Shown: positions 5,784 to 21,781, counted from the stretch's first letter. The stretch is 64,000 bases of DNA from an uncultured Gemmatimonadales bacterium (GCA_963844035.1 CAWJMT010000003.1:32001-96000), one strand, 5' to 3'. Numbers and translations are program-made. Notes: generated by a model from the sequence alone, not told the origin.

Positions 5784-6148
5784 GTGGGCCATCGAGTGCT
5801 CGTCTGCGACGACGCGATCTTCATGCGGACGATGATCAGCGACATCCTCACCGCAGGCCGGCTACGAGGTCGTCGGGCGAGGCCGAGACCGGCGTCCAGG
5901 CGATCGAGCGCTACAAGGCGCTGCGGCCCGACCTCGTCACGATGGACATCGTGATGCCCGACATGGGCGGCATCGAGGCGGTGCGCGAGATCGTGAAGGA
6001 CGATCCCGACGCCAAGATCCTGATGTGCAGCGCCATGGGCCAGCAGGCGCTGGTGGTCGAGGCGATCCAGGCCGGCGCGAAGGACTTCGTGGTCAAGCCG
6101 TTCCAGCCGTCGCGCGTGCTCGAAGCGGTGCAGCGCGTCCTCGGGTAG
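5784..6148 (+). CDS. cheY: CheY response regulator (Firmicutes/Thermotoga/DifD-like)
   Basis: VLVCDDAIFMR, TMDIVMPDMGGIEAV, MCSAMGQQALVVEAIQAGAKDFVVKPF; SD-like GGGAGG upstream. Confidence 0.93.
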
Positions 6149-6150
6149 GC

Positions 6151-8064
6151 ATGGATGTCCGGCAGTACGCGGACCTCTTCCTCACCGAGAGCCGCGAGCA
6201 TCTCACCGCGTTCAACCAGCTGCTGCTCGAGTGGGAGCGCGACCCGGCGGCCACGGGAGCCGGTGAGCGGCATCTTCCGCGCGGTCCACACCGTGAAGGG
6301 GATGGCGGCGACGATGGGGTACGCGCGCGGTCGCCGACCTGGCGCACCGGGTGGAGAACCTGCTCGACGTGGTGCGGCGCGGGGAGCGGACCGCCGTGAC
6401 CGGCGACTGTTCGAGCTGCTGTTCCGCGCCGCCGACGCGCTCGAAAGCGGTCGACCTCGCGTGGTGGGCCGCGAGGGCGAGCTGGACGTCGCCGCGGCTC
6501 GCTCGCGGAGCTGGAGGCGGCGAGCGGACGCGTCGCTCCGCGCGCCGCGCCGCGGCGCGCCGCGCCGCGGCGCCGTCCCCGCGCCGGCGCCCGTCGCCCC
6601 GGGCGCCGCGGCCGGGGAAGGGCCGCGCTGGTGCAGGTGACGCTGCGTCCCGAGGCGGCGCTCAAGGGCGCGCGCGCGCTGCTGGTGCTGCGCAAGGCGG
6701 CAGACGCTCGGCGCCGTGCACGCGGTCACGCCGGCGCCCGGCGGCGTTCGAGTCCGAGGGCTTCGACGGACGGCTGGCCTTCCGGCTCGACTCGACGGCG
6801 CCGGCGGAGGCGATCGTGGCGGCGCTGCCAGGGCGCGGGCGACGTGGAGCGGGTGGAGGTCGCGGCGGAGGATCGGAGGAGCGCCGGCGCCGAGGGCGCC
6901 GCGAAGCGCACGCGCACGCGGCACATCCGCGTGGACCTGCGCCGGCTCGACGAGCTGATGAACCTGATCGGCGAGCTGGTCATCGCGCGCGGCCGCCTGA
7001 ACGAGCTCGCGCGCGGTTCGCGCGAGCCGGACCTCGACGACGTGCGCGATCCAGATCGCGCGTCTCGCGATCGAGCTGCAGAGCGAGATCATGGCGGCGC
7101 GGATGATGCCGGTGTGGCAGGTGTTCGACCGCTTCCCGCGGATGGTGCGCGACCTCGCGCGGCAGATGGGCAAGCAGGTCGCGTTCCGGGTCGAGGGGAA
7201 GGAGATCGAGCTGGACCGCGCGATCCTCGACGAGATCGCCGATCCGCTGGTGCACCTGCTGCGCAACGCGGTGGACCACGGCATCGAGCCGCCGGAGGAG
7301 CGGCCGCAGGCCGGCAAGCCGCCGGTGGGCGAGATCGTGCTCGCGGCGGTGCGCGAGCGCTCGAGCGTCGCGATCACGGTCTCGCGACGACGGGCGCGGG
7401 ATCGACCGCGCGCAAGGTACTCGAGCGGGCGCAGGCGGGATGGGCCTCGTGGAGCCGCACGCCGACATCCTGACGCGACGATCAGCTGCTGCGGATCCTG
7501 GCGCGCCCGGGCTTCACCACGGCCGAAGCGGTGACCGACGTGTCGGGACGGGGCGTGGGCATCGACGTGGTCAACGACGCGGCTGCGGGCGCTCGGCGGC
7601 TCGCTCGAGGTCCGGTCCGAGGCGGGCAAGGGCACCACGCTTCACGCTGCGGCTGCCGGTGACGCTGGCGATCGTGCGGGCGCTGCTGGCGCGCGTGGGC
7701 GACGAGCGCTACGCGCTGCCGCTGACGCACGTGGCGGAGACGGTGGAGTTCGGCGACGAGCCGACGACGACGATCGCAGGGCCGGGAGGCGATGCTGCTG
7801 CGCGACCGGGTGGTGCCGCTGGTGCGGCTGCGCGAGCTGCTCGGCGTGCGGCGGCGCCGCACCGCCGGCCGCGCCAGCCGGTGATCGTGCTGGAGATCGG
7901 CGAGCGCCGCGCCGGGCGTGGTGGTGGACGGCATGCTCGGGCAGCAGGAGATCGTGGTGAAGAGCTTCGATGCGCCGCGCGGGACGCTGCCGGTGTTCAG
8001 CGGGGCGACGATCCTCGGCGACGGCGATCCCGGCGTTGATTCTCGACGCCGGCGGCCTGTCTAG
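6151..8064 (+). CDS. cheA: CheA histidine kinase (P1-P2-P3-P4-P5)
   Basis: P1 FRAVHTVKGM; P2-like LKGARALLVL; IRVDLRRLDELMNLIGEL; HLLRNAVDHGIE; PGFTTAEAVTDVSGRGVGIDVV; LPVTLAI; QEIVVK. Confidence 0.95.
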
Positions 8065-8075
8065 GGGAGGGGGCG

Positions 8076-8707
<632 letters not shown>

Positions 8708-8711
<4 letters not shown>

Positions 8712-11427
8712 CGGCGCCGGCGCCCTCGGAGCGCGACCTCGCCGTCCTGCGGTCGTTCGCCCGCCGGATCGATCCGTCCGACGCCGGGCGCCCACAACAA
8801 TCTCGGCGTGCTCTACTATCCGCAAGGGCTCTCACCAGGAGGCGATCGCCGAGCTTCACGCGCGCGCTCGAGCTCGACCCGCAAGATGGCGGTCGCGCAG
8901 CGCAACCTCGAGATCGTCTACCGCACACCGGGGTTCTACGACCGGCGCATCGCCGAGCTGCGGGAGCGGCTGCGCCAGCGCGCCGGACGACCGCGAGGCG
9001 CGCTGGGAGCTGGCGCGCGCCTACGCGTTCGTCGGGCAGTACGAGGAGGCGGTCGCCGAGTTCGAGGCGCTGCTCGCCGAGCGGCCCGGCGACATCGGGG
9101 CGATGCTCCAGCTCGGGCCTCGCCGAGCAGCGCCGCGGGCGCCTCGAGGCGGCCGCCGAGTGGTTCGTCCGCGCGCGCGAGCTGGATCCCTCGAGTCGTC
9201 GGTGCTCGCGTTCCACCACGGCGAGGTGCTACTACAACCGGGGACTGAACGACGACGCGCTGGCCGCGCTGGAGCGCGCGGTCGCGCTGAGCCCCGACAA
9301 CGCCGACGCCCACTACCTGCTGGCCTTCGTGCTCGGCGACCTGGGCCGCCACGCCGAGGCGCGGGCCGCGTCCAAGCGCGCCGTCCAGCTCAACCCGGCG
9401 CTCGGCGCGCGCCCAGACCAACCTGTCGCTCGAGCGCACACCGCCGACGCACGGCGCGCGAGCAGCGCGCGCCGCGAGGCTCCCGCAGCCGGCGATCGCC
9501 GAGGGCAACGCGCTCGCGCACTACAACCTCGGCCCGCGCCTTCCGCCAGAAGGGCTACTACGCCGAGGCGCTGCGCGAGTACCGGCTCGCCCTGGAGCGC
9601 GGCGAGGACCGCCGCGCTCGCGCTCGCGAGGCGATGGCCGAGGTGCACCTGCTGCGGCGCGACCTCCCGGCGGCGCTGCGAGCTGTACGAGGAGCTGGTC
9701 GGCGAGTCGCCGGACTCCGCCAAGCTGTGGAACGAGCGCGGCGTCTGCCTGCACCAGGGCGGGCCGCGCCGACGAGGCGCTCGCGTCGTACCGGCGGGCG
9801 GTCGCGGCCGACCCGAGTACGCGCCTCGCCCGCAACAACCTCGGCGTGGCTGCTCGTGCGCAGGCGCCCGACGGAGCAGGCGGTGGAGGCGTTCCGCGAC
9901 GGCCCTGCAGGCGGGCCGACGCTGATCACGCCGCGCGCCTCAACCTCGCCCTGCTGCTCGCCCAGCTCGACCGCACCAGCTGTCGCTCGAGGCGTACCGC
10001 CAGGTGCTCGAGATCGAGCCCGCACTCCGCCGCCGCGTGGAACGGCATCGGGCTCGTGCTCGTCGAGCTGCAAGCGCTACGCCGACGCGAGCAACGCCTT
10101 CGCGCGCGCGGTCGAGGCCGACCCCGAGCACGCGCGGCGCGCACTACAACCTGAGCTTCACGCTGTCGAATCTCGGCGACTTCGAGGGCGCGCTGCGCGA
10201 GATGCAAGCGGGCGCTCGAGCTCGATCCCGTACTACGTCCCGCAGAAGTTCCTGCTCGCGATCGAGCTGCAGTTCGAGGACCCGTCGCTCAGCGTCGCTC
10301 CCGAGATCTCGGCGGACGTCCGGCCGAGACCTGGGGGAGTCGTTCGCCTTCGATCCGCGCCTGCTCGACGACATCTTCAAGGAGCTTGCCCCGGCCGGCC
10401 GCCGCGGCACGCGACACGGCGCAGCGGGCCGAGGACCCTTTCGGGCTGGCGCGCGACTACCTTTCCAAGGGGCTCTTCGAGCAGGCCGCCGCGGAGGCGA
10501 CCCGCGCGGTGCAACGCGGCGCCGACCGGGTGGACGCCGCGGTGCTGCTGGGCGACGTCTTCGCGCGGCGCGGCCTGCTACGGCGAGGCGCTCGAGCGCT
10601 ACCGGGAGGCGCGGGCGCTCGACCCGACCACGTCCGCGACGCGCTGCGCGGGGAGGTGCGCGCGCTCCTGGCGCTCGACCGTGCTCGCCGAGGCGCGGCC
10701 GCTGGCGGAGCAGCTGCTCGGGCTCACACCCGACGACGTGGAGGCCGCGGTGCTCGCGGCGAAGGCGCGCGGCCGGCGGCGACCCCGCGGGCGCGCTCGA
10801 CGCGCTGCGCCAGGCGCAGACGCGCGCGCCGGCGCGGGCCGACGTCCGCAAGCTGCTGGGCGACGTGGCGCTCAGGGTCGGCGACGCCGAGCGGCGCCTT
10901 CGCCGCCTACCGGGCGGCGCTCGAGCTCGACCCGGGATACGTCCAGGTCTGGGTCGAGGTCGGGCGGCTGCACGAGCTCAAGGAGGAATCGGGGCCGGCG
11001 GAGCAGGCGTACCGCGCGGCACTCGAGCACCTCCCGAGCTTCTACGAGGCCGCGCTGGCGCTCGCCGTCTGCTGCGGCGGGTGGGGCGCGGCGCCGAGGC
11101 GCGTGGACGCGCCTGGCGACGATGCTGGAGCAGGATCCCTACGATTTCGAGGCGCTGCTGCTGCTGGCGCCGGGTGCTGCTCGACGACAAGCGCGGATGC
11201 GGCGGCGCTCGAAGCGTCCGGCGGGTCGTGCAGTTCGAGCCCGAGCACGTCGAGGCGCGGTTCCAGCTCGGCGTCGCGCTCGCGCGTGAGCGGCGCTACC
11301 GCGACGCCGTGGCGGCGTGGGAGCGGGTGACGCGCCTCGACCCGTCCGGACCGTTCGCGCAGCGCGCGCGGATCCACGCGCGCACGGCGCTCGACCTGGT
11401 GCACATCTTCGCCCCGGCGCGGCCTGA
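8708..11427 (+). CDS. Large (~900 aa) multi-TPR protein
   Basis: Many TPR-type repeats (AHNNLGVLYY, ALERAVALSPDNADAHYLL, KLWNERGVCL, AWNGIGLVL, ARFQLGVALA) over shifting frames. Confidence 0.85.
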
Positions 11428-11438
11428 CCGATGGCGAC

Positions 11439-12603
11439 ATGGCGATCGAAGGCCCGCTTCGCGAGCTCGGCCTCCACGACGTCTTCCAGCTGCTCGACCT
11501 GAGCCGGAAGACCGGCGTGCTGCGCGTCACGTCGGACCTGCGGCACAACGACGGCACCGTGTACTTCGACGGCGGGCACGATCGTGTTCGCCGAGATCCG
11601 CAGCAACCCCCACCCGCTCGGGGCGCTGCTGCTGCGGACCGGCAAGATCGCCGAGGCCGACCTCGAGCGGGCGCGCGACATGCAGACGCGCCAGGGAGAC
11701 CCGCGCCGGCTGGGCCAGATCCTGGTCGAGATGGGCGCGATCACGGCGCGCGAGCTGGAGCGCCAGGTGCGAGTTCCAGATCGAGGAGAGTCGTCTTCGA
11801 GCTGATGTCGCTGGCGCGAGGGCTTCTTCTCGTTCGCCGAGGAAGCGGTCGACCGGACTGCCCGCGGACGTGCCGTGCGGATTCCCACGGAGGCCATCCT
11901 GATGGAGGGGGCGCGCCGCATCGACGAGTGGTCGCGCATCGAGAAGCGCATCTCCGCACCTCGGCGTCGTGCCGCTCCTCGCGCCGCCGCGGGACGGGGA
12001 CGCGGGGCAAGCTCGACCTGCTGCCGGCGGAGTGGGAGCGTGCTCGCGCAGGTGGACGGAACGCGGGACGTGCGTGCCATCGCGCCGTCGCTGGGCCGCT
12101 CGGAGTTCGACGTGGCGAAGACGCTGTTCGGCCTGGAGAGCGCGGGCGTGATCGTGCTGGTGGATCCGGGAGCGGCCAAAGGCGATCGCGTGACGACGGC
12201 CGCCGAGCTCGCCGAGCTCGTGGCCCGCGCCGAAGACGCGCTCGCCGCCAAGGACCTGGGCCGCGCGCGCGCGGAAGCGGAGCAGGCCGCCGCACTGTTT
12301 CCGCACGATGCCGCGGTCCATCTGCTGCTCGGCCGCATCCAGCTCGCCGACGGCCGCCCGGGTGACGCGGCGGACGAGCTGCGGCGCGCCCTCCACCTCG
12401 ACTCGTTCCTGGTCGCGGCGCACCGCATGCTCGGGTACGCGCTCGTGGCGTCGGGCCGGTTCGCGGAGGCGGTGGAGCAGTGGGAACAGTGGGAGCGGCT
12501 CGCGTCGCGCTCGGACGCCGAGACCGCGCAGCTCGAGCAGGTGCGTCGCGCCAAGACGGCCGCGCAAACGCTCGTCGGCGCCGGGGTGCCGGGCCATGAC
12601 TGA
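11439..12603 (+). CDS. DUF4388 (PatA_N-like) protein with MshEN-like motifs, winged-helix-like segment and C-terminal TPRs
   Basis: MAIEGPLRELGLHDVFQLLDLSRKTGVL; RLGQILVEMGAIT; LMEGARRIDEW; VDGTRDV..SEFDVAKTLFGL. Confidence 0.88.
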
Positions 12604-13432
12604 AGACATCAAGTCGCTCTCCGCCCAGCTCGCCCAGGATCCCATGAGCCTCGTCTTCCTGCGCCTCGCCGAGCTGCTGCGGCAGAAGGGGCAGCTCGAC
12701 GCCGCGCACCGGGTGGCGCTGAGCGGCTGGAGCGCCACCCGCATGTGGCCGACGCGCACGACCTGTACGCGCGCATCCTCGCCGACAAGGGGGACTACGA
12801 GCGCGCATTCGACGAGTGGGACATGGCGCTGCGGATCGCTCCCGGCCACACCGGCGCGCTCAAGGGGCTTTCCTTCCTGTACTTCAAGGTGGGCGACGTG
12901 GATCAGGCGGTGGCGCACCTCGAGTCGGCGCGGCGCCATAGCCCCGACGACCCGGGGATCGAGCAGGCTCTGGCCGTCGTGCGGGGCGGCCGGCCGGTCA
13001 AACCCGCGGCGGCTCCCGCTGCGGGACGTCAGGAGCCGGCGGCGACCGCCGCCGCTGCGATGCCGCTGGAAGACGCTCGCGTCTTCGCCGGCCTCGAAGG
13101 CGCGCAGGAGGGGCTGCTACTGCTCGATGCCGCGGGGCGAGTGCTGGGCGGCGCACTCCGCAATCCCGCCGGCGACGACGTCACCGATGCGGTCGCCGCC
13201 TATCTCGCGGGCGTGTCGCGGGAAGCGGCGCGCACCGCCAAGCTGCTCGGCCTTGGGACCTGGACCGGGCTCGCGACCGAAGGGGGTCAGGGCCACGTCC
13301 ATCTTGCGCCAGCCCACGTCCGACGCCCTGCTGCTGGTGCTGCGCGACCGCGCGATGCCGATCGGACGCCTCGCCATCGTGGCGCAGCGGGCCGCGCACG
13401 CGGCACGTCGCTGGCTGGAGCGGCAGGGATGA
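12596..13432 (+). CDS. TPR + Roadblock/LC7 domain fusion protein
   Basis: N-terminal DPMSLVFLRLAELLRQKGQLD plus TPRs; C-terminal LLLLDAAGRVL..AVAAYLAG..LLGLG..LLLVL..IGRL roadblock pattern. Confidence 0.78.
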   Translation: MTEDIKSLSAQLAQDPMSLVFLRLAELLRQKGQLDAAHRVALSGWSATRMWPTRTTCTRASSPTRGTTSAHSTSGTWRCGSLPATPARSRGFPSCTSRWATWIRRWRTSSRRGAIAPTTRGSSRLWPSCGAAGRSNPRRLPLRDVRSRRRPPPLRCRWKTLASSPASKARRRGCYCSMPRGECWAAHSAIPPATTSPMRSPPISRACRGKRRAPPSCSALGPGPGSRPKGVRATSILRQPTSDALLLVLRDRAMPIGRLAIVAQRAAHAARRWLERQG

Positions 13433-13779
13433 CGGCCGCCCCGTTCGAGCGCGCCCTCGACCGGATCTCGCGGGTCCGCGGTGTCCGCGGCTCGATGTTC
13501 GTCTCCGCCGACGACGGCCTGGTGGTGGCGGAGCTCCTGATGGAGGGCGTCAACGGCGGCGGTCGCCGCGCTCGCCGCCTGCCTCGCCACCGGCTGGGGC
13601 GGGCGATGGAAGCGGCGGGGATCGGCCGCAGCGTGTTCTGGCACCTCCAGGGGACCGACGGCACGCTGCTCGTCGTCCCGGCGGCGCCGGGATCCTCGTG
13701 GTCGCGGTCACCGAACCGCGACGTGAACGTCGGGCTGTGCGGCTCGAGATGCTGCGCGCCGCGGAGGCGGTGGCGATGA
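13429..13779 (+). CDS. Roadblock/LC7 protein (MglC-like)
   Basis: VRGVRGSMFVSADDGLVV...AVAALAA...LVVAV..DVNVGL.RLEM. Confidence 0.82.
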   Translation: MTAAPFERALDRISRVRGVRGSMFVSADDGLVVAELLMEGVNGGGRRARRLPRHRLGRAMEAAGIGRSVFWHLQGTDGTLLVVPAAPGSSWSRSPNRDVNVGLCGSRCCAPRRRWR

Positions 13780-14251
13780 CGACCACGGTCGTCGAGCCCT
13801 GGACGCACGAGCCGCTGCAGCGGTTCGTGGGCGCAGGCGAGCGCGCGGCTGGTGGTGCGTCATGACGCCGGCGGGGCAGGTGCTGGCCCAGCACGGCTTC
13901 GCGCGGGCGGTGGACCTGATGTCGGCGTGCGGCGCTCGGCGCGGCGATCATGGCGTCGTCGGCGGCGCTCGCGCGAGCTGCTGGGCGAGCCGCCGTTCGG
14001 CGCCCTGTTCCACGCGGGCGAGCGCCACGGCATCCATCTCGGCGCGGTGCCCACGACCCCGCGGGACCGGCTGGTCGCGCTGACGGTGTTCGGCCGGGAG
14101 ACGTCGATCGGGCTGGTGCAGCTCTTCTTCGAGCGAGTTCGCCGCGGCGCTCAAGGCCGCGGCGCCCGCGGAGCGGCGTCGCGGCCCGGTCCTCGCCGCG
14201 GACTTCGAGGCGGAGCTGAGCCGCAGTCTCGACTCGCTCTTCGGCAGGTGA
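13776..14251 (+). CDS. mglB: MglB-like Roadblock GAP with acidic C-terminal helix
   Basis: AGQVLAQHG..ALGAAIMASS..LLGEPPFGALFHAGE..VFGRETSIGLV..DFEAELSRSLDSLFGR; lies immediately upstream of mglA. Confidence 0.83.
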
Positions 14252-14255
14252 GCCC

Positions 14256-14873
14256 ATGTCGCTCGTGAACTTCACGACGCGCGAGATCACCTGCAAGATC
14301 GTCTACTACGGGCCGGGGCGGTCGGGGAAGACGACCAACCTGCAGTACATCTACGGCCAGGTCCCGGACGACGCGCCGCGGGCGCATGGTGTCGCTCGCC
14401 ACCCAGACCGACCGCACGCTGTTCTTCGACTTCCTGCCGCTCGATCTCGGCGTCGATCTCGGGGTTCACGACCAAGTTCCAGCTGTACACGGTGCCCGGG
14501 CCAGGTCTACTACAACGCCACCCGCAAGCTGGTGCTGCAGGGCGCCGACGGCGTGGTGTTCGTGGCCGACAGCCAGGCGCGCCAGCTCGACGAGAACATC
14601 GAGAGCCTGCAGAACCTCCAGCGAGAACCTGCTCGAGCACGGGCGTCGACATCCGCACGCTGCCGATGGTGCTGCAGTACAACAAGCAGGACCTGCCCGC
14701 GCGACCTCATCCTCGCGCCCGGCGGAGCTCGACGACGCGCTCAACTTCCGCGCGCTGCCCGAGCTTCCCGGCCGACGCCCTGCACGGGCGCGGGCGTGTT
14801 CGAGACGCTGAAGGCGATCAGCGCCGAGGTGCTGCGCAAGCTGAGCCAGCGCGCGCCGGGGCGGCACGGCTGA
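14256..14873 (+). CDS. mglA: MglA small Ras-like GTPase (Myxococcus/Thermus group 1 type)
   Basis: [74 protein letters not shown]. Confidence 0.95.
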
Positions 14874-14874
14874 C

Positions 14875-16842
14875 GTGGACCTGAACCCGCGCTTCCAGTT
14901 CGAGACCTTCGTCGTCGGCGCGAGCAACCGGCTCGCCGCGACGGCGGCGCGCGCGTCGCCGAGTCGCCGGGCGACGGCCTACAACCCGCTGTTCATCTAC
15001 GGCGGGTCGGGGCTGGGCAAGACGCACCTGCTGCAGGCCATCGGCCACGCGGCGCTCGAGCAGCAGCCCGGCGCTCCGCGTCGAGTACGTGACGCTCGAG
15101 GAGTTCGTCGAGCAGTTCCACGCCGCGGTCGCCGCGGGGCAGGGCGACGCCTTCCGCCGCAGCGTCGCAGGAGTCGGACGTGCTCCTCCTCGACGACGTG
15201 CAGTTCCTCGACGAACGCAACGCGAGATGCAGGCGGAGCTGCTCCGGCTCACCGAGGCGCTGCAGGCGGCCGGCCGGCAGATCGTGCTGACCAGCGACCG
15301 CCCGCCGGCCGAGATCGCGCGACCTCGACGAGCGGCTGATCTCGCGGCTCTCCGGCGGCCTCGCTGGTGGACATCGCGGCGCCCGACTACGAGACGCGCG
15401 TCGCCATCCTGCGGCGCAAGGCGGAGGAGCGCGGCGTCGACGTTCCCGCCGGGCGTGCTCGAGGCGGTGGCGGGCGGCGCGATCCAGAACGTGCGCGAGC
15501 TGATGGGCGCGCTGAACCGGCTCGATCGCCTTCCAGGCGGTGAGCGAGGCGCCGCTCACGCCGAGGGCGCGCCGCGCTGCTCGGCCTGTCGCTGCCCGCG
15601 AGCACGGCGGCCGCGCGCGGCGGCCGCCGCGCGCCGCGCCAGGCGGACGAGTTCGCCGCGTTCCTGCAGGACGTGACCGCCACCGTGGCGCAGAGCGGTC
15701 GAAGCGTGGCGCGCGCGCGTCGGCGAGGCGGTCGTGCGCTGGCAGGGCGAGGGCTACCGCACGCGCCGGCTGGAGGCGCTCCTCGAGCGACGACACCCCC
15801 GGCGCGGTGGACGACGTGATCGCGGCGTTCGCAGGCGGACGTCGAGCGGCTGCGCGCGCTCGGGCCGAGGTCGCCGCGCTCGACCCGCCAGGCCGCGGGG
15901 CACGCCATGTTCCGCGACCCGGACCGCCTGGCGGAGGCGCGAGGCCGCGGCGGCCACCGTGCAGGCGGGCGTCGGCGCCGCCCCCCGGCCCCTCGGAGGC
16001 GTTTACGCTTCGCGGCGTTCATCGTGGGGGCGGCGAACCAGGTGGCCGTGCGCGCGGCGCACGCGGTGCTCGACGCAGCCCGGCAGCGCTACAACCCGCT
16101 CGTCATCGACCGGGCCGAGCGGCGTCGGCAAGACGCACCTGCTTGCACGCGATCGGCAACGAGCTCGCCGAAGGCGCGGCCGGCGCCGTCGTCGCCTGCT
16201 TCTCCACCCAGGCGTTCATCGACGAGCTCATCGCCGCCATCGACGGCGACCGGGTCGATTGGTGGCGCGCGCGCTACCGGCGGCGCCGACCGCGCTGCTG
16301 CTCGACGACGTGCAGCTGCTCGCCGGGAAGGAGCGGACGCAGGAGGAGCTGTTCAACCTGTTCAACCTGCTGCACGACGGGGAGCGCCAGCTGGTGTTCA
16401 CGCCGCCGGCCCATCCCAGCACGCTCGTGGGCGTGGAGCAGCGCCTCGGCTCGCGGCTCGAGGGCGGCCTCGTGGTGGAGCTGGCGGCGCCGGACCGCGA
16501 CGTGCGGCGCGCGGTGCTCGACCGCCTGCTCGCGCAGCACGAGCGTCGAGTCCCGACGCCGCGCTGCGCGACTACCTCGCCGACCGCCCGGTGGATTCGG
16601 TCCGCAGCCGTGCGGCGTGGTGCAGCGCGTGATGAACGCCGCGGCGGACGCCGGATCGAGCCGCTCAGCGTCGCCGCTCGCGCGCGAAGTCCTGGAGGGA
16701 CGGCCCGCCGCGTCCGGGCGCGCAACGGGCGGCCTCCGCACCAGCGGTCCGATCGTGTCGAGCCGGGCGGCTCCGCAGCCGCGAGAAGGTCGTGTGGGAC
16801 TGGCCCGACGTCGCCGACCGGCTGATCGAGGAGCTGCGCTGA
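14875..16842 (+). CDS. Tandem DnaA-like AAA+ protein (two domain-III modules; no domain I or IV)
   Basis: Module 1: [59 protein letters not shown]. Module 2: [61 protein letters not shown]. Ends [15 protein letters not shown]. Confidence 0.85.
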
Positions 16843-18482
16843 TGGCCATCAAGGGCAGCCTCAAGGAGGCGCAGCCTCCCCGACGTGCTCCAGCTGCTGG
16901 CGATGGGCCAGAAGACCGGCTGCCTGTCGGTCGCCGACCGCAGCAACTTCGGCTACATCTACTTCGAGAAGGGCCGCATCACCTACGCGTCGATCGTCAA
17001 CCGGCGCGACCGGCTCGGCGACATCCTGGTCAAGAACGGCCGCATCACCCAGGAGCAGCTCGAGGCGGCGGTGCGACCGCCAGGCGCACGACCGCGACAA
17101 GCGCTCGGCGAGATCCTGCTGGTCGAGCATGGGTGCATCACGCGGCCGGACCTCGAGCGCTACATGCGCGTGCAGATCGAGGAGGCCGTCTACTACCTGT
17201 TCACCTGGACGCAGCGGCACGTTCAACTTCGAGGCGGACGTCCGGCCCGAGCGCGCAGGACTTCCTCGTGTCGCATCAGCCCCGAGTCGCTGCTGCTCGA
17301 GGGGGCGCGGCGGGTGGACGAGTGGAGCCTCATCGAGAAGAAGATCCCGACGTTCGACCTGATCTTCGTCGTGGAGCGCGACCGGCTGGCGATCGTCCGG
17401 GCGTCACGCTCAACGCCGGAGCAGGAGCGCATCCTGCCGCTGCTCGACGGCACGCGCGACGTGAACGCAGGTCATCGAGGACTCGGGGCTGCTCGAGTTC
17501 GACGTCGGCAAGGCGCTGTACGGCCTGATCACCGCCGGCTTCGCGCACCGGCTCGGGCCGCACCGCGTCGACCGGTGGACGCGCCTGTCGACGGACGCCC
17601 GCGTCGAGGAGCACCGCAATCTCGGGCGTCGCCTTCTACAAGACGGCGATGTTCGACGAGGCCGCGCGCGAGTTCCGCCGGGTGGTGGAGCTGCGGCCCG
17701 GCGACAGCGAGCGCGCACTTCTTCCTCGGGCTCGTGGCGCTGCGCCAGGCCCGCTGGCGCGAGGCGGTGGACGCGCTGCGGCACGCGGCGGAGCAGGGCG
17801 GCAGCCGGCCCGCGGTGCTGCACAACCTGGCCGTGGCCTGGAGCAGATGGGCCGGCTCGCCGAGGCGGAGGCGGCGTACGCCGAGGCGGCCGCCGCGCGC
17901 CACGACCGACGCGCGCATCTCCCTCGGCTGGGGCATCGTCGCGCTCAAGCAGGGCGACTTCGCGAGCGCCGCCGGACGCGCTCGACCGCGCCAAGGAGCT
18001 GTTCGGCGACGATCCCGCCCGCCGACGTGGTACTGGGCGCGCGACCCTCGCCGCGGCGTCGGCGCGGCGAGTTCGAGCTGGCGGACGCGCTCGCCGACGA
18101 AGGGGTCGGAGCGCGTATCCCTCGCACGCGGTCGCTGCGCAACAACCTCGCCGTGCTGAGCGAGCTCGGGGGCGACCTCGCGCGGGCGGAGGAGCTGATG
18201 CGCGGCGCCCGCAGGAGGACCCGTCGCTGCCGCAGCTCTCGAAGAACCTCGGCGACCTCGCCTACCGGGCGGCGCGCTACGACGAGGCGCAGGAGGCGTA
18301 CGACCGGGCGATCAAGCTCGCCCCGCGCCTCGGCGACGACGTGTACTTCAAGCTCGGCAACATCGCCTTCAAGCGCAGGCGACCGCGAGCGGCGGCGCAG
18401 CTGCTGGCGCGAGGCGCTCGCGCTCAATCCGAAGCACGAGCTCGCCAAGGCCAACCTCGACACCTTGAGCGCGTTGTCGTGA
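16842..18482 (+). CDS. DUF4388 + MshEN-like + winged-helix-like + TPR protein (paralog of 11439)
   Basis: [73 protein letters not shown]; several TPRs. Confidence 0.88.
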
Positions 18483-19309
18483 CGAGCGACCACCGGATGA
18501 GCCGCGCTGCAGGCGCTCACCGAGAAGATCTCCCGGGCGCGCGGCGTCGCTGCGGAGCTACAAGGACAAGTGCCTGCGGCGCCGCCTCGCGGTGCGGATG
18601 CGGGCGCGCGGCGTGCACACCTTCGACGAGTACGCGACGGTGCTCGACGCGCGACGCCGAGGAGTACGACCGGCTGCTCGACAGCGCTCACGATCAACGT
18701 CACCAAGTTCTTCCGCAACCCCGAGACGTTCGCGGTGCTGCGCGCCCGTGTGGTGCCGGCGCTGTGGCGCGCGCGGCACGGACGCATGCGCGTCTGGTCG
18801 GCCGGCTGCGCGTCGGGCGAGGAGCCCTACACCCTCGCGGTCGCGCTGGCGGAGACGGCGCGCGGCCTCCACGAGATGACTGCTGGCGCGCGTCCGCATC
18901 GACGCGACCGACCTCGATCGCGGCGAGCCTGGAGCGCACGCGCGCGGGCCAGTTCCCCGCAGAGCACCTTCAGCGAGATGCCGGCGGAGCTCGCGCGAGC
19001 GGTACTTCACCGCCGGGCCGCCGTACCGCGCCGGCCGCTGCCGGCGCTGGAGCGGATCGTGCGCGTGCGCCGCCACGACCTCACGCGCGAGCCGCCCCCC
19101 GAACCGCCCTACGACCTGATCGTCTGCCGCAACGTGGTGATCTACTTCGACCGGCCGATGCAGGAGCGGCTGTTCCAGACGCTTCGTCGAGGCGCTCGTG
19201 CCCGGCGGCATCCTGCTGCTCGGCAAGGTCGAGACGCTGCGTCGGGCCCGCGCGCGAGCGCCTCAAGCTCGAGGACCCGCGCGAGCGGATCTACCGCCGG
19301 CCCGCATGA
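18479..19309 (+). CDS. cheR: CheR methyltransferase
   Basis: LTINVTKFFRN, RVWSAGCASGEEPYTLA, HDL, DLIVCRNVVIYFD, GGILLLGKVE. Confidence 0.94.
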   Translation: MTSDHRMSRAAGAHREDLPGARRRCGATRTSACGAASRCGCGRAACTPSTSTRRCSTRDAEEYDRLLDSAHDQRHQVLPQPRDVRGAARPCGAGAVARAARTHARLVGRLRVGRGALHPRGRAGGDGARPPRDDCWRASASTRPTSIAASLERTRAGQFPAEHLQRDAGGARASGTSPPGRRTAPAAAGAGADRARAPPRPHARAAPRTALRPDRLPQRGDLLRPADAGAAVPDASSRRSCPAASCCSARSRRCVGPARERLKLEDPRERIYRRPA

Positions 19310-19808
19310 CCACGCCGGCCGCCAAGGAAACGATCGTGCGCGTGGCGGACTGGGCCGCGAAGCGCGGCGACGAGGCGCTCGTGACCCTCGGCCTGGGCTC
19401 GTGCGTCGCCATCGTGCTGCACGACCCGCAGACGTGGGTCGGCGGCCTGGCGCACATTCTGCTGCCCTCCCGCAGCCTCGCCCGCGACACGCACCAACCC
19501 GGCGAAGTTCCCGGAGACCGCGCGTGCCGTTCCTGGTCGAGCAGCTGCGAGGCGCTGGGCGCCGATCCGCGCCGCATCGTGGCCAAGCTCGCGGGCGGCG
19601 CGAGCATGTTCGCGCAGCTGATGACGCCCGGGTCGATGCAGATGGGCGAGCGCAATCTGGCCGCCACCCGCAGCGCGCTGCGCGGCGGCGCGCGATCCCG
19701 CTCGCGGGCGAAGCGGTCGGGGGCGAGGCCGGCCGCTCGGTGCGCTTCTTCGTCGCCGACGGCCGGGTCGAGGTCCGCTCCGTGGGAGCCGGTGTCGTCT
19801 GCATCTGA
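19306..19808 (+). CDS. cheD: CheD receptor glutamine deamidase
   Basis: TLGLGSCVAIVLHD..GGLAHILLP (catalytic Cys/His), AKLAGGASMF, MGERN, VGGEAGRSV. Confidence 0.93.
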
Positions 19809-20892
19809 CGCGCGCCCCACCGTCCTGGTCGTGGACGACAGCGCGCTGATGCGCCGCGTGCTGTCGGACATCTGGGCGGTCGGCGGCCGCCGGGGAGTTC
19901 CGCGTGGTGGCGACGGCGCGCAACGGCCTCGACGCGCTGCGCAAGGTGCACGCAGCTACGAGCCCGACCTCGTGACGATGGACATCGAGATGCCGGAGCT
20001 CGACGGCCTCGGCGCCATCGGCTACATCATGCGCGAGGCGCCGCGGCCGATCGTCGTGGTGAGCGCGCACGGGCGGGCCCGGAACCGCCGAGGCGATCCG
20101 CGCCCTCGAGCTCGGCGCGGTGGACCTGGTCGCCAAGCCGGAGGAGGCCGACGCGCACGGCGCTGGAGCGCTCGGGCCGCGGCTCCTCGGCGCGGTGCGG
20201 CGCGCGCTCGCGGCCGACGGTCCCGCGTGCCGATGCTGGCGCGCCCGCCGGCCCGCCGTGCGGCACGCGCTCGAGACGGGCCTGCGGCCGCGCGCCCGCG
20301 TCGTGGCCCGATCGCCGCGTCGACCGGCGGGCCCCGCGCGCTCGCGGAGGTGGTGCCCGCGCATGCCCCGCGGGCCGGCACGCGCGGTGCTCGTCGTGCA
20401 GCACATGCCGCCCGGGTTCACGCGCAGCCTCGCCGAGCGTCTCGACCGCATGAGCCCGCTGCGCGTCGTCGAGGCGGAGCACGGCGCGCCGGTGGTCGAG
20501 GACACAGCGTACGTCGCGCCGGGCGACTATCACATGCGGGTGACGGCCGCGCACGACGGTCCGCAGATCGCGCTCGACCAGGGCCCGCCCATCTGGGGCG
20601 TGCGTCCCGCCGCCGACCCGCTCTTCCGCTCCGTGGCCGCAGCTGTTCGGCGCCCGCGGCCTGGGCGTCGTGCTCACCGGGATGGGCCGCGACGGCGCCG
20701 AGGGGCTGCGCGCGATTCACGACGCGGGCGGCACGCGGCCTCGCGCAGGACCGCGAAACCTCGATCATCTACGGGATGCCGCACGGCGGCGGTGCAGGCC
20801 GGCGGGCGCGGACGCGGTGCTGCCCCTCGGACAGGTCGCCGATCGCATTGCGTCCGAGCTGCTGCGCCGCGACCCGGTGGCCCGCGCGATGA
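19792..20892 (+). CDS. cheB: CheB methylesterase with receiver domain
   Basis: [59 protein letters not shown]. Confidence 0.94.
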
Positions 20893-21306
20893 GCCGCGGG
20901 CTACCTGCTGGTGCAGGTCGGACGGCGCGCGCTACGGCCTCGCCGCTCGAGCGCGTGCTGCAGGTGGACGACCTGGGCGAGGTGCTGGAGGTGCCGCGCG
21001 TGCTGCCCGCGATGCGCGGGGTCACGCCGCTGCAACGGCACGTCTGGTGCCGCTGATCCACCTGGGCGCGCTGCTCGGCAACCGCCGCCGCCGGCCCGGC
21101 GCGGGACGGCCACCGTGCTCGTGGACCTGGGCGGCCGGGCGCGCTGGTCGCCCTCGAGGTGGACGACGCCGACGAGGTCGTGCGCGAGGCGGTGCTGCCC
21201 GCGCCGCCCGGCGAGTCGCCTGCCGTGGGCGTCCGGGGTGGCGCGGCGCGAGGGGACCCTCGTGCCGATCCTGGACTGGGACGTTCTGGAGGAGCGCATC
21301 AAGTGA
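20889..21306 (+). CDS. cheW: CheW-like protein 2
   Basis: [47 protein letters not shown]. Confidence 0.78.
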
Positions 21307-21781
21307 CCACCAGGGGACGACGTCCAGGTCGTCGTCTTCCGGCTGGCCGGCCAGGAGTTCGCCTTCAACATCTTCCAGGTGGAGCGGATCCTCCGCTACG
21401 AGGCGGCGGCACCGCTCCCCAAGGCACCGCGAGTTCCTCGAGGGGGTGCTCCAGTACAGGGCGCGCGTCGTCCCGCTCATCGACCTGCGCAAGCGCCTCA
21501 GCGTGGCGGCGCCGATCGAGGAGGAGACGCGCACGGTGATCCTCGAGTCGGAGGGCGCGAAGATCGGGGTGGTGGTGGACGCGGTCACCGAGGTGCTCCA
21601 GGTCGCGGCGTCCGAGATCACGCCGCCGTCCAAGGTCGTCCACGGACTGGCGGCGGAGTACATCAGCGGGCTCGTGGTGAAGGACGGGCGCACGATCATC
21701 GTGCTCCAGACCGGCCAGCTCCTGAACGCCAAGGAGAACATGGCGCTCGAGGCAGTGCTCCCCAAGGCCAAGGCATCATGA
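21303..21781 (+). CDS. cheW: CheW protein 3
   Basis: [55 protein letters not shown]. Confidence 0.9.

Follow-up and report, generated by a model that had tools for sequence, protein, structure and literature searches.

In this study, we analysed a stretch of 64,000 nucleotides of DNA from an uncultured Gemmatimonadales bacterium (GCA_963844035.1 CAWJMT010000003.1:32001-96000), referred to here as the window, with a focus on a forward-strand gene (14875..16842) that encodes two ATPase modules of the DnaA domain III type in tandem. The gene lies between the operon paralog of mglA, which encodes a small Ras-like GTPase (14256..14873, + strand), and the gene for a PATAN (DUF4388) protein with an MshEN-type insert and tetratricopeptide repeats (TPRs; 16842..18482, + strand), the most constant partner of the tandem gene. 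The mglA stop codon occupies 14871-14873, the ATPase gene starts with a GTG at 14875, and the ATG of the following gene overlaps the ATPase stop at 16842. We conclude that the tandem DnaA protein is real and conserved, that it is misnamed in databases and that it is apparently undescribed; no title or abstract describing such a protein was found in literature searches from which subscription journals were largely absent.

The motifs of the tandem gene lie where an earlier note, made from the sequence of the window, had placed them, with the module 1 set ending in NVRE, the module 2 set ending in SVRS and the C-terminal motif finishing at 16842. They are, however, spread over three alternating reading frames, and no single open reading frame (ORF) runs along the gene in the window. 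The same assembly contains an intact copy on contig C35, where the gene is one ORF of 653 aa (P0001; G000:C35, L071:12733-14694). Compared with this copy, the window gene carries 45 frameshifting insertions or deletions (indels) in 1959 nt (23 per kb), and most of its substitutions are at third codon positions (11.9/9.5/28.5%). All 19 genes compared with C35 are frameshifted in the window at 4-26 per kb, ileS included; one of the 19 references, that of the second roadblock gene, was misframed, so that its rows in this comparison and in the locus maps are void, and that gene was confirmed separately. Positions 1-22154 of the window are 84.7% identical to the end of C35, and the overlap as a whole joins the first 54 kb of contig C3 to the last 51 kb of C35 (G000:C3:1-54154 versus C35:271142-322763) at approximately 85% identity; single-base indels are frequent in it, and most substitutions affect third codon positions. 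This part of C3 probably represents a related strain, assembled as a consensus at low coverage and joined to the contig, and the window copy is best read as an error-rich consensus from such a strain. A pseudogene was considered and rejected because every neighbouring gene is also frameshifted and an intact copy is present on C35. None of the sequencing runs compared with the window matched more than 8% of its words, and no RNA run was among the matches; four read runs aligned at 82% likeness gave only short pieces from other organisms, none of which spans the stretch, and 12 single-base indels in these pieces differ from the window and were not used as evidence. Other findings made within window positions 1-22154 need comparison with C35.

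P0001 is a single gene product with two PF00308 matches (E 7.8e-100), no PF08299 match and no domain IV helix-turn-helix, in line with the domain composition proposed in the earlier note, and in 35 of 40 relatives both PF00308 matches likewise fall within one open frame. The canonical dnaA, which the note had expected elsewhere in the genome, is a separate gene on contig C9 with both PF00308 and PF08299, the latter at E 2e-27. Domains I and II are also absent from P0001, as the PF00308 match begins at residue 5 and the gene starts right behind the mglA stop codon; the Pfam domain I profile gave no match, which is a weak test since the canonical DnaA is not matched either. In the AlphaFold model (33 homologs; mean predicted local distance difference test score 85, predicted template modelling score (pTM) 0.47), module 1 (residues ~5-238) is followed by a disordered segment (241-260), a helical unit (262-367), module 2 (372-607), a further disordered segment and a last helix (644-652). 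In the window, on the + strand, module 1 corresponds to 14881..15586, with Walker A at ~15001, Walker B at ~15192, sensor 1 at ~15296, the arginine finger at ~15345 and sensor 2 at ~15494. It is followed by an 'EF..FL.D' helix (residues 262-281; 15649..15709), a single helical repeat (W..EGY..RLE..L...F..DV..L...DP; 15710..15968), module 2 (15984..16701) and a C-terminal motif (EK.VW.WP...R.IEE.R; 16774..16842), which is kept in all forms of the protein described below and is modelled as a low-confidence stretch with one short helix. The EE codons of this motif double as the Shine-Dalgarno-like GAGGAG of the next gene. The linker had been described as helical and ~150 aa long; it is indeed mostly a folded helical unit, but its length is ~133 aa (residues 239-371), and its fold had no match in the PDB at E≤0.001 and none in the Atlas.

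The closest structural match found with Foldseek is domain III of Bacillus subtilis DnaA (8bv3), with a root mean square deviation (rmsd) of 1.4 Å over 232 columns, and modules 1 and 2 are 45% and 36% identical to domain III of Escherichia coli DnaA and 31% identical to each other. The modules thus share with DnaA domain III (PF00308; B. subtilis 8bv3/8btg, T. maritima 2z4r, A. aeolicus 1l8q/2hcb/3r8f) the fold, the Walker A and B (DD) motifs, the sensors and the arginine finger. The tandem protein differs from DnaA in that it has two modules per chain, lacks domains I/II and IV, carries an additional repeat and C-terminal motif, is encoded in a signalling operon and evolves much faster, within-group identity being 58% and 49% for the two modules versus 81% for DnaA. 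Like Hda, it has an AAA+ domain of the DnaA type but neither domain I nor domain IV, and the role of trans arginine-finger donor that we propose for module 2 would be a further similarity. It is, however, only 22-26% identical to E. coli Hda, has tandem modules in a different genomic context and lacks the clamp-binding motif, which was found in none of 36 homologs by a pattern that detects it in E. coli Hda. It also stays below the TIGR03420 (Hda) cut-off even with two modules (185.6 versus 194.8 bits). The TIGR00362 (DnaA) cut-off is passed because the scores of the two modules add up; the database names 'DnaA' and 'DnaA/Hda family' are consistent with this. Type II AAA+ proteins such as p97/Cdc48 and Rix7 likewise have two modules per chain, one apparently more catalytic, but they belong to another AAA+ clade and resemble the tandem protein poorly (14-15% identity, template modelling score 0.27-0.30, rmsd >20 Å over the whole model). 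Judged by these sequence features, the tandem protein resembles the AAA+ switch of DnaA and Hda and is a member of neither family. Deposits under the names 'chromosomal replication initiator DnaA' or 'DnaA/Hda family' mislead origin prediction and dnaA counts.

The two ATPase modules

Motif conservation was counted in 36 homologs, with B. subtilis DnaA numbering mapped through an ungapped alignment. In B. subtilis DnaA, R202, R206, F218, H231, R264, L269, G317 and R321 have been listed as filament residues and I190 and K222 as single-stranded DNA (ssDNA) residues (PMC6669920), and R264 has been described as the arginine finger and I190, K222 and T225 as ssDNA residues in a second report (bioRxiv 10.1101/2022.03.18.484894). 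These residues were assigned to an ATP-side or an arginine-finger-side face from their sequence in a figure legend of the second report and from what is known of the filament. Module 1 keeps Walker A and B in all 36 homologs, the sensor 1 aspartate (D248) and the sensor 2 arginine (R313) in 35 each, E314 in 33, F218 in 32, G317 in 34, R321 in 32 and its own arginine finger R264 in 34. Its ATP-site face is therefore conserved, and its ssDNA residues are replaced (I190 by His in 26/36, T225 by Met in 24/36); H231 is replaced by Arg in 34/36 and R206 is mostly lost.

In module 2, the arginine-finger face is kept (R202 in 33/36, R206 in 35/36, R264 in 35/36 and L269 in all 36), but E314 is present in only 6/36 homologs and F218 is changed to Leu in 26/36. 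Sensor 1 of module 2 had been called degenerate, which applies to the window protein but less generally to the family, as the aspartate (D248) is present in 12/36 homologs. In four distant loci (L113, L114, L116 and L120) the module 2 profile match stops before the lid, and the two of these examined over their full sequence (L113 and L120) retain the arginine finger. Because module 1 keeps the ATP-site residues and module 2 keeps the arginine-finger face, the conservation pattern suggests one composite active site, in which the ATP site of module 1 would be completed in trans by module 2. If so, the covalent two-module layout provides a defined, DNA-free model for the head-to-tail interface of DnaA.

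Reduced forms and the downstream partner

In a set of 301 genomes that samples the phylum Gemmatimonadota broadly, a profile of the linker matches 201 and gives no match in 100; by family, the matches fall in 121/125 genomes of f1, 55/70 of f2 and 12/48 of f7, with none in f6 and f9-f12. A query made from the PATAN N terminus, at a threshold that also lets in the upstream DUF4388-TPR paralog, matches 216 of the same genomes, including all 201 linker-positive ones, and in family f7 the two queries match the same 12 genomes. These tallies are descriptive, since kin are not independent, and one positive row is an unpublished genome (G174), on which none of the conclusions depends by itself. Database names also place the tandem DnaA family in Gemmatimonadota, and a genome-collection scan returned six loci, all from Gemmatimonadota or Gemmatimonadales, with a single-protein query that detects close relatives only.

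Among 36 close loci, 35 have mglA as the immediate upstream neighbour and 35 have the PATAN-TPR gene immediately behind the ATPase gene, the exceptions being contig ends, and the gap between mglA and the ATPase gene is 0-38 nt between alignment ends in 35 close loci. Twenty further loci were chosen as distant or exceptional, and 16 of these contain the ATPase gene; it is followed by the PATAN-TPR gene in all 16, but an adjacent mglA is missing in five. In three genomes (G303, G240 and G265) the ATPase gene comes immediately after rluA, in the order ileS..rluA, ATPase, PATAN-TPR; che and mgl genes are all missing from this locus, and the sole mglA found in these genomes groups with the other paralog (100% branch). 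The constant partner is the downstream PATAN-TPR gene (201/201) and not mglA, because these three genomes keep the ATPase/PATAN-TPR pair without the operon mglA. The emphasis that the earlier note laid on MglA is only partly borne out: it fits the close loci but not all of the more distant ones.

Fifteen genomes are positive for PATAN and negative for the linker. In two the gene is cut at a contig end, one has a diverged gene, one is unresolved, one has a single ATPase with the C-terminal motif, and ten have a remnant, that is, an ORF of 60-75 aa directly upstream of the PATAN-TPR gene with only the EF helix and the C-terminal motif. The remnants (L109:10427-10645, L108:10278-10484, L111:9697-9912, L211, L212, L216, L219, L220, L237 and L238) are easily overlooked by gene callers, and the one examined has no Pfam match. 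A profile built from seven of them matches both ends of 31/36 full-length proteins, and in the six-frame set of G000 only the two copies of the ATPase gene score above threshold. Conservation of the C-terminal motif acts at the protein level, as the codons for Glu -19, Lys -18, Pro -12 and Arg -7 vary synonymously, and Trp -13 is present in 35/35 sequences; the Glu at -4 is encoded by GAG in 34/35 and is possibly fixed by the ribosome-binding site of the next gene. In nine of the ten remnant genomes (L109, L111, L211, L212, L216, L219, L220, L237 and L238) the PATAN-TPR partner lacks the MshEN-type insert of ~53 aa, identified by NF053729, and this loss is a clean deletion within the PATAN domain.

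Single-module forms with module 1, the repeat and the motif make up 17 of 160 proteins classified, so that there is a natural series of reduction from two modules, to module 2 without a lid, to module 1 only and to the motifs only. Because the remnants keep just these, the two short motifs and the PATAN-TPR neighbour appear to form the constant core, and the ATPases would represent a regulatory load. The reduced variants also point to residues worth testing. Two unusual arrangements were observed: L239:2199-3047 (G220) joins one DnaA-type module directly to the C-terminal motif, without the repeat, ahead of a full-length PATAN-TPR gene, and P0140 (654 aa) holds the linker, part of module 2 and DUF4388 in one frame, which is either a real fusion or a frameshift artefact.

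The helical repeat in archaeal proteins

The single repeat in the linker is found in arrays in proteins that are mostly archaeal (Thermoplasmata). A search of 1.84 billion representatives with the linker profile gave 435 proteins at E≤0.001, and among the best 150 of these 23 are arrays of 4-24 repeat matches. The 23 array proteins score 98-200 bits in forward orientation versus at most 6 bits when reversed or locally shuffled; in the reverse search a profile of 78 repeat units detects the linker at 45 bits, and the hhalign comparison of linker and repeat gives 98.6% (E 5e-16). Named members come from Thermoplasmata, from Bathyarchaeia/Thermoproteota and from two bacterial bins. Five of the 23 contain a DnaA domain (E ~1e-70) without a domain IV match, four of these with zinc ribbons, and two of the 23 contain DUF835, a domain labelled iKaiC in PMC5847659. 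One cluster of repeat-DnaA fusions includes a member named Thermoplasmata archaeon (P0284/P0290). The Thermoplasmata proteins (P0134, P0167, P0177, P0203, P0262 and P0282-P0285) share with the tandem protein both the repeat and a DnaA domain III without a domain IV match. They differ from it in having 6-8 repeat matches rather than one, a single ATPase that is near canonical DnaA, zinc ribbons and another N-terminal domain; the EF and C-terminal motifs were not detected in them, and the family is uncharacterised. Their N-terminal domain has some resemblance to PATAN, but no significant homology (probability 0.2%, no Pfam match).

In a tree of 76 rows, module 1, module 2, the archaeal set and Gemmatimonadota DnaA each form one clade (98-100). 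In the best tree the archaeal clade branches within ordinary bacterial DnaAs and does not group with the modules, with an unresolved base, and support for modules 1 and 2 as sisters is 31. The bacterial rows were 22 of 80 loci, chosen for diversity and found by likeness to an archaeal protein, which biases the sample towards the archaeal sequences; with this sampling, a joint clade of the Gemmatimonadota modules and the archaeal ATPases is not rejected (approximately unbiased test, p-AU 0.30). A metagenome scan for archaeal fusions recovered mostly ordinary DnaA genes, with the repeat in 0/80 loci. The link through the repeat suggests that the pairing of repeat and ATPase crossed domains or arose twice. 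Very long arrays, of up to 24 matches, were seen in P0122 (3090 aa), P0229 (3143 aa), P0147, P0193 and P0191; two proteins of this set have DUF835, for one the source gives the name KaiC/RAD55-family ATPase, and one comes from Candidatus Wallbacteria.

Proposed function and the surrounding operon

On balance, we think it probable that the tandem protein is an ATP-switched adaptor that is tethered to the PATAN-TPR protein, to which it is predicted to bind, and acts on type IV pili or cell polarity. We propose that docking on the PATAN-TPR protein is the task of two elements, the EF helix and the C-terminal W-P..R.IEE motif, because these remain once both ATPases and the repeat are lost. Module 1 would bind and hydrolyse ATP, and module 2 would mainly lend its arginine-finger face, head to tail as in the DnaA filament, either within one chain or between chains. 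The nucleotide state may then alter the assembly or activity of the PATAN-TPR protein, possibly via the MshEN-type insert, and the output, by analogy with characterized PATAN and MglA-TPR systems, would be the pilus motor or polar localization rather than the flagellum in most carriers. A flagellar output was considered and rejected for these, because FlhA is found in only 74/301 genomes, in 24/125 of family f1 and not at all in G000. G000 has three PilT matches over the cut-off, and at least three PilT matches are found in 84/91 PATAN-positive versus 1/30 PATAN-negative genomes. In Synechocystis, PilB1 and PilC are binding partners of PATAN domains (bioRxiv 10.1101/2021.06.11.447907), and MglA-GTP drives pilus formation via the TPR protein SgmX in Myxococcus xanthus (PMC7519303). 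The operon shares its neighbour types, namely MglA, roadblock, TPR and PATAN proteins, with the MglA-MglB-SgmX system of M. xanthus and with PatA-type PATAN regulators, and our best guess for the output is control of pili or polarity. The earlier suggestion of an initiator ATPase repurposed as a switch or scaffold agrees well with the missing domain IV, the missing clamp motif, the separate canonical dnaA and the fixed place in an Mgl/PATAN/chemosensory operon. The DnaA ATPase is known from replication control, in DnaA and Hda, and its reuse in signalling throughout a phylum would, if true, mean an initiator engine in another job.

Several observations weigh against an ATP-switched adaptor of this kind. 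Each functional step (binding, ATPase activity and localization) is inferred, and the composite site stays a prediction because the AlphaFold model, at its pTM of 0.47, does not fix the orientation of the modules. Module 2 retains residues at the ssDNA positions (Ile/Val at I190 in 30/36, Lys/Arg at K222 in 29/36 and Thr/Ser at T225 in 29/36), which the adaptor role does not explain. The remnant genomes belong to four genera of one family and may reflect few independent events, and adjacent genes such as these can persist together through translational coupling alone, as the last codons of one are the ribosome-binding site of the next. PilT is present in 118/121 genomes and is thus near-universal in the phylum, and the contrast in PilT counts is confounded by kinship.

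Other roles for the tandem protein have to be weighed against the same data. Its main target may be the operon MglA, whose GTP-bound form it would bind as an effector or whose GTPase cycle it would regulate together with the roadblock proteins; the link to the PATAN-TPR protein would then be secondary. We regard this as unlikely, even though mglA abuts the ATPase gene in 35/36 close loci, as the earlier note had expected of homologs, and in 11/16 further ones, and genomes such as G071, G278, G107, G111 and G113 that match neither the linker nor PATAN-TPR have only a single weak-scoring mglA, the paralog identity of which was checked in G071. The ATPase gene persists without an adjacent mglA in the remaining 5/16 loci; the three examined genomes that have the other mglA paralog only show that co-occurrence with the operon mglA is not obligate; genus g34 combines an intact ATPase gene with a strongly diverged operon mglA (L123); and six loci keep mglA beside a remnant only or lie in such genomes (directly seen in L108, L109 and L111). 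A structural scaffold or polymer, in which nucleotide stabilizes the fold or the assembly and hydrolysis carries no signal, would fit the loss of the ATPase modules in ten genomes, the degenerate module 1 of some loci (L118 and L122) and the long helical arrays that the repeat builds in archaeal proteins. The conservation of Walker A and B, sensors 1 and 2 and the arginine finger of module 1 in 34-36 of 36 homologs nevertheless goes beyond what a passive scaffold needs, and we give this idea little credence.

Similarly improbable, in our judgement, is an Hda-like or DnaA-binding regulator that gives its arginine finger to DnaA or caps the DnaA filament and so links polarity to replication initiation. 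Hda is a precedent for a DnaA regulator with domain III alone, and module 2 keeps the filament-interface residues R202, R206, R264 and L269 as well as the ssDNA positions. On the other hand, the clamp motif and a TIGR03420 score above the cut-off are lacking, the modules evolve much faster than DnaA, no replication genes were found among the neighbours in the mapped loci, and 100/301 genomes give no linker match. The connection to initiation that the earlier note had entertained found no positive support, and ten genomes that have neither ATPase module left argue against it. More improbable still is that module 2 binds ssDNA without origin recognition, for example DNA entering via type IV pili, and reports to the signalling module. 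This would account for the equivalents of I190, K222 and T225 being conserved in module 2 and not in module 1; all three are also kept in 9/9 archaeal DnaA-like domains, and PilT is present. However, the loci yielded no competence or recombination genes, and module 2 is absent from the single-module forms.

Extending the adaptor proposal to the archaeal proteins, we suggest tentatively, as a possibility that we find attractive but rather doubtful, a cross-domain class of DNA-independent DnaA ATPases paired with the helical repeat, which would serve as ATP switches in PATAN/roadblock/GTPase/KaiC-type networks of Gemmatimonadota and Thermoplasmata. In Gemmatimonadota a duplication of the ATPase would have yielded one catalytic module and one that donates the arginine finger, together a covalent two-subunit DnaA filament, docked on the PATAN-TPR protein by a unit of 60-75 residues that is able to stand alone. 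Cultured members of the phylum exist in the genus Gemmatimonas.

No DnaA-type ATPase tied to MglA/PATAN systems was found in literature searches. According to PMC4316618, Group 1 MglA occurs in Gemmatimonadetes and MglA is found near PATAN genes, and its supplement gives the neighbourhood in G. aurantiaca as 'PATAN>MglA>-PATAN>'. The three supplement files searched have no DnaA entry, and we infer that the unnamed dash between MglA and PATAN is the tandem DnaA gene.

The usual gene order of the operon is cheW cheY cheA cheC, TPR, DUF4388-TPR, TPR-roadblock, two roadblock genes, mglA, ATPase, DUF4388-TPR, cheR cheD cheB cheW cheW. In the window, all on the + strand, cheY, cheA and cheC (5796..8711, with cheW just upstream) are followed by the gene for a large TPR protein (8708..11424), the upstream DUF4388-TPR paralog (11439..12603), the TPR-roadblock gene (12517..13432, start approximate), the second roadblock gene (13429..13779, start approximate) and the MglB-like roadblock gene (13776..14251); cheR, cheD, cheB, cheW and cheW occupy 18405..21777 downstream of the ATPase gene. 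No chemoreceptor is among the mapped genes of this chemosensory operon (5796-21777), and the six MCP-domain matches of G000 are on other contigs. Genus g34 (L123-L127) keeps the ATPase and PATAN-TPR genes intact, but its operon mglA, its large TPR gene and its upstream DUF4388 gene show strong divergence or shortening, and no cheR/cheD/cheB was detected. The second mglA paralog, which forms a separate branch from the operon paralog, lies beside an mglB-like gene (L234, G000:C35:95657-96083; L229-L236), and several of its copies (L229-L236) have a long insertion after residue 149.

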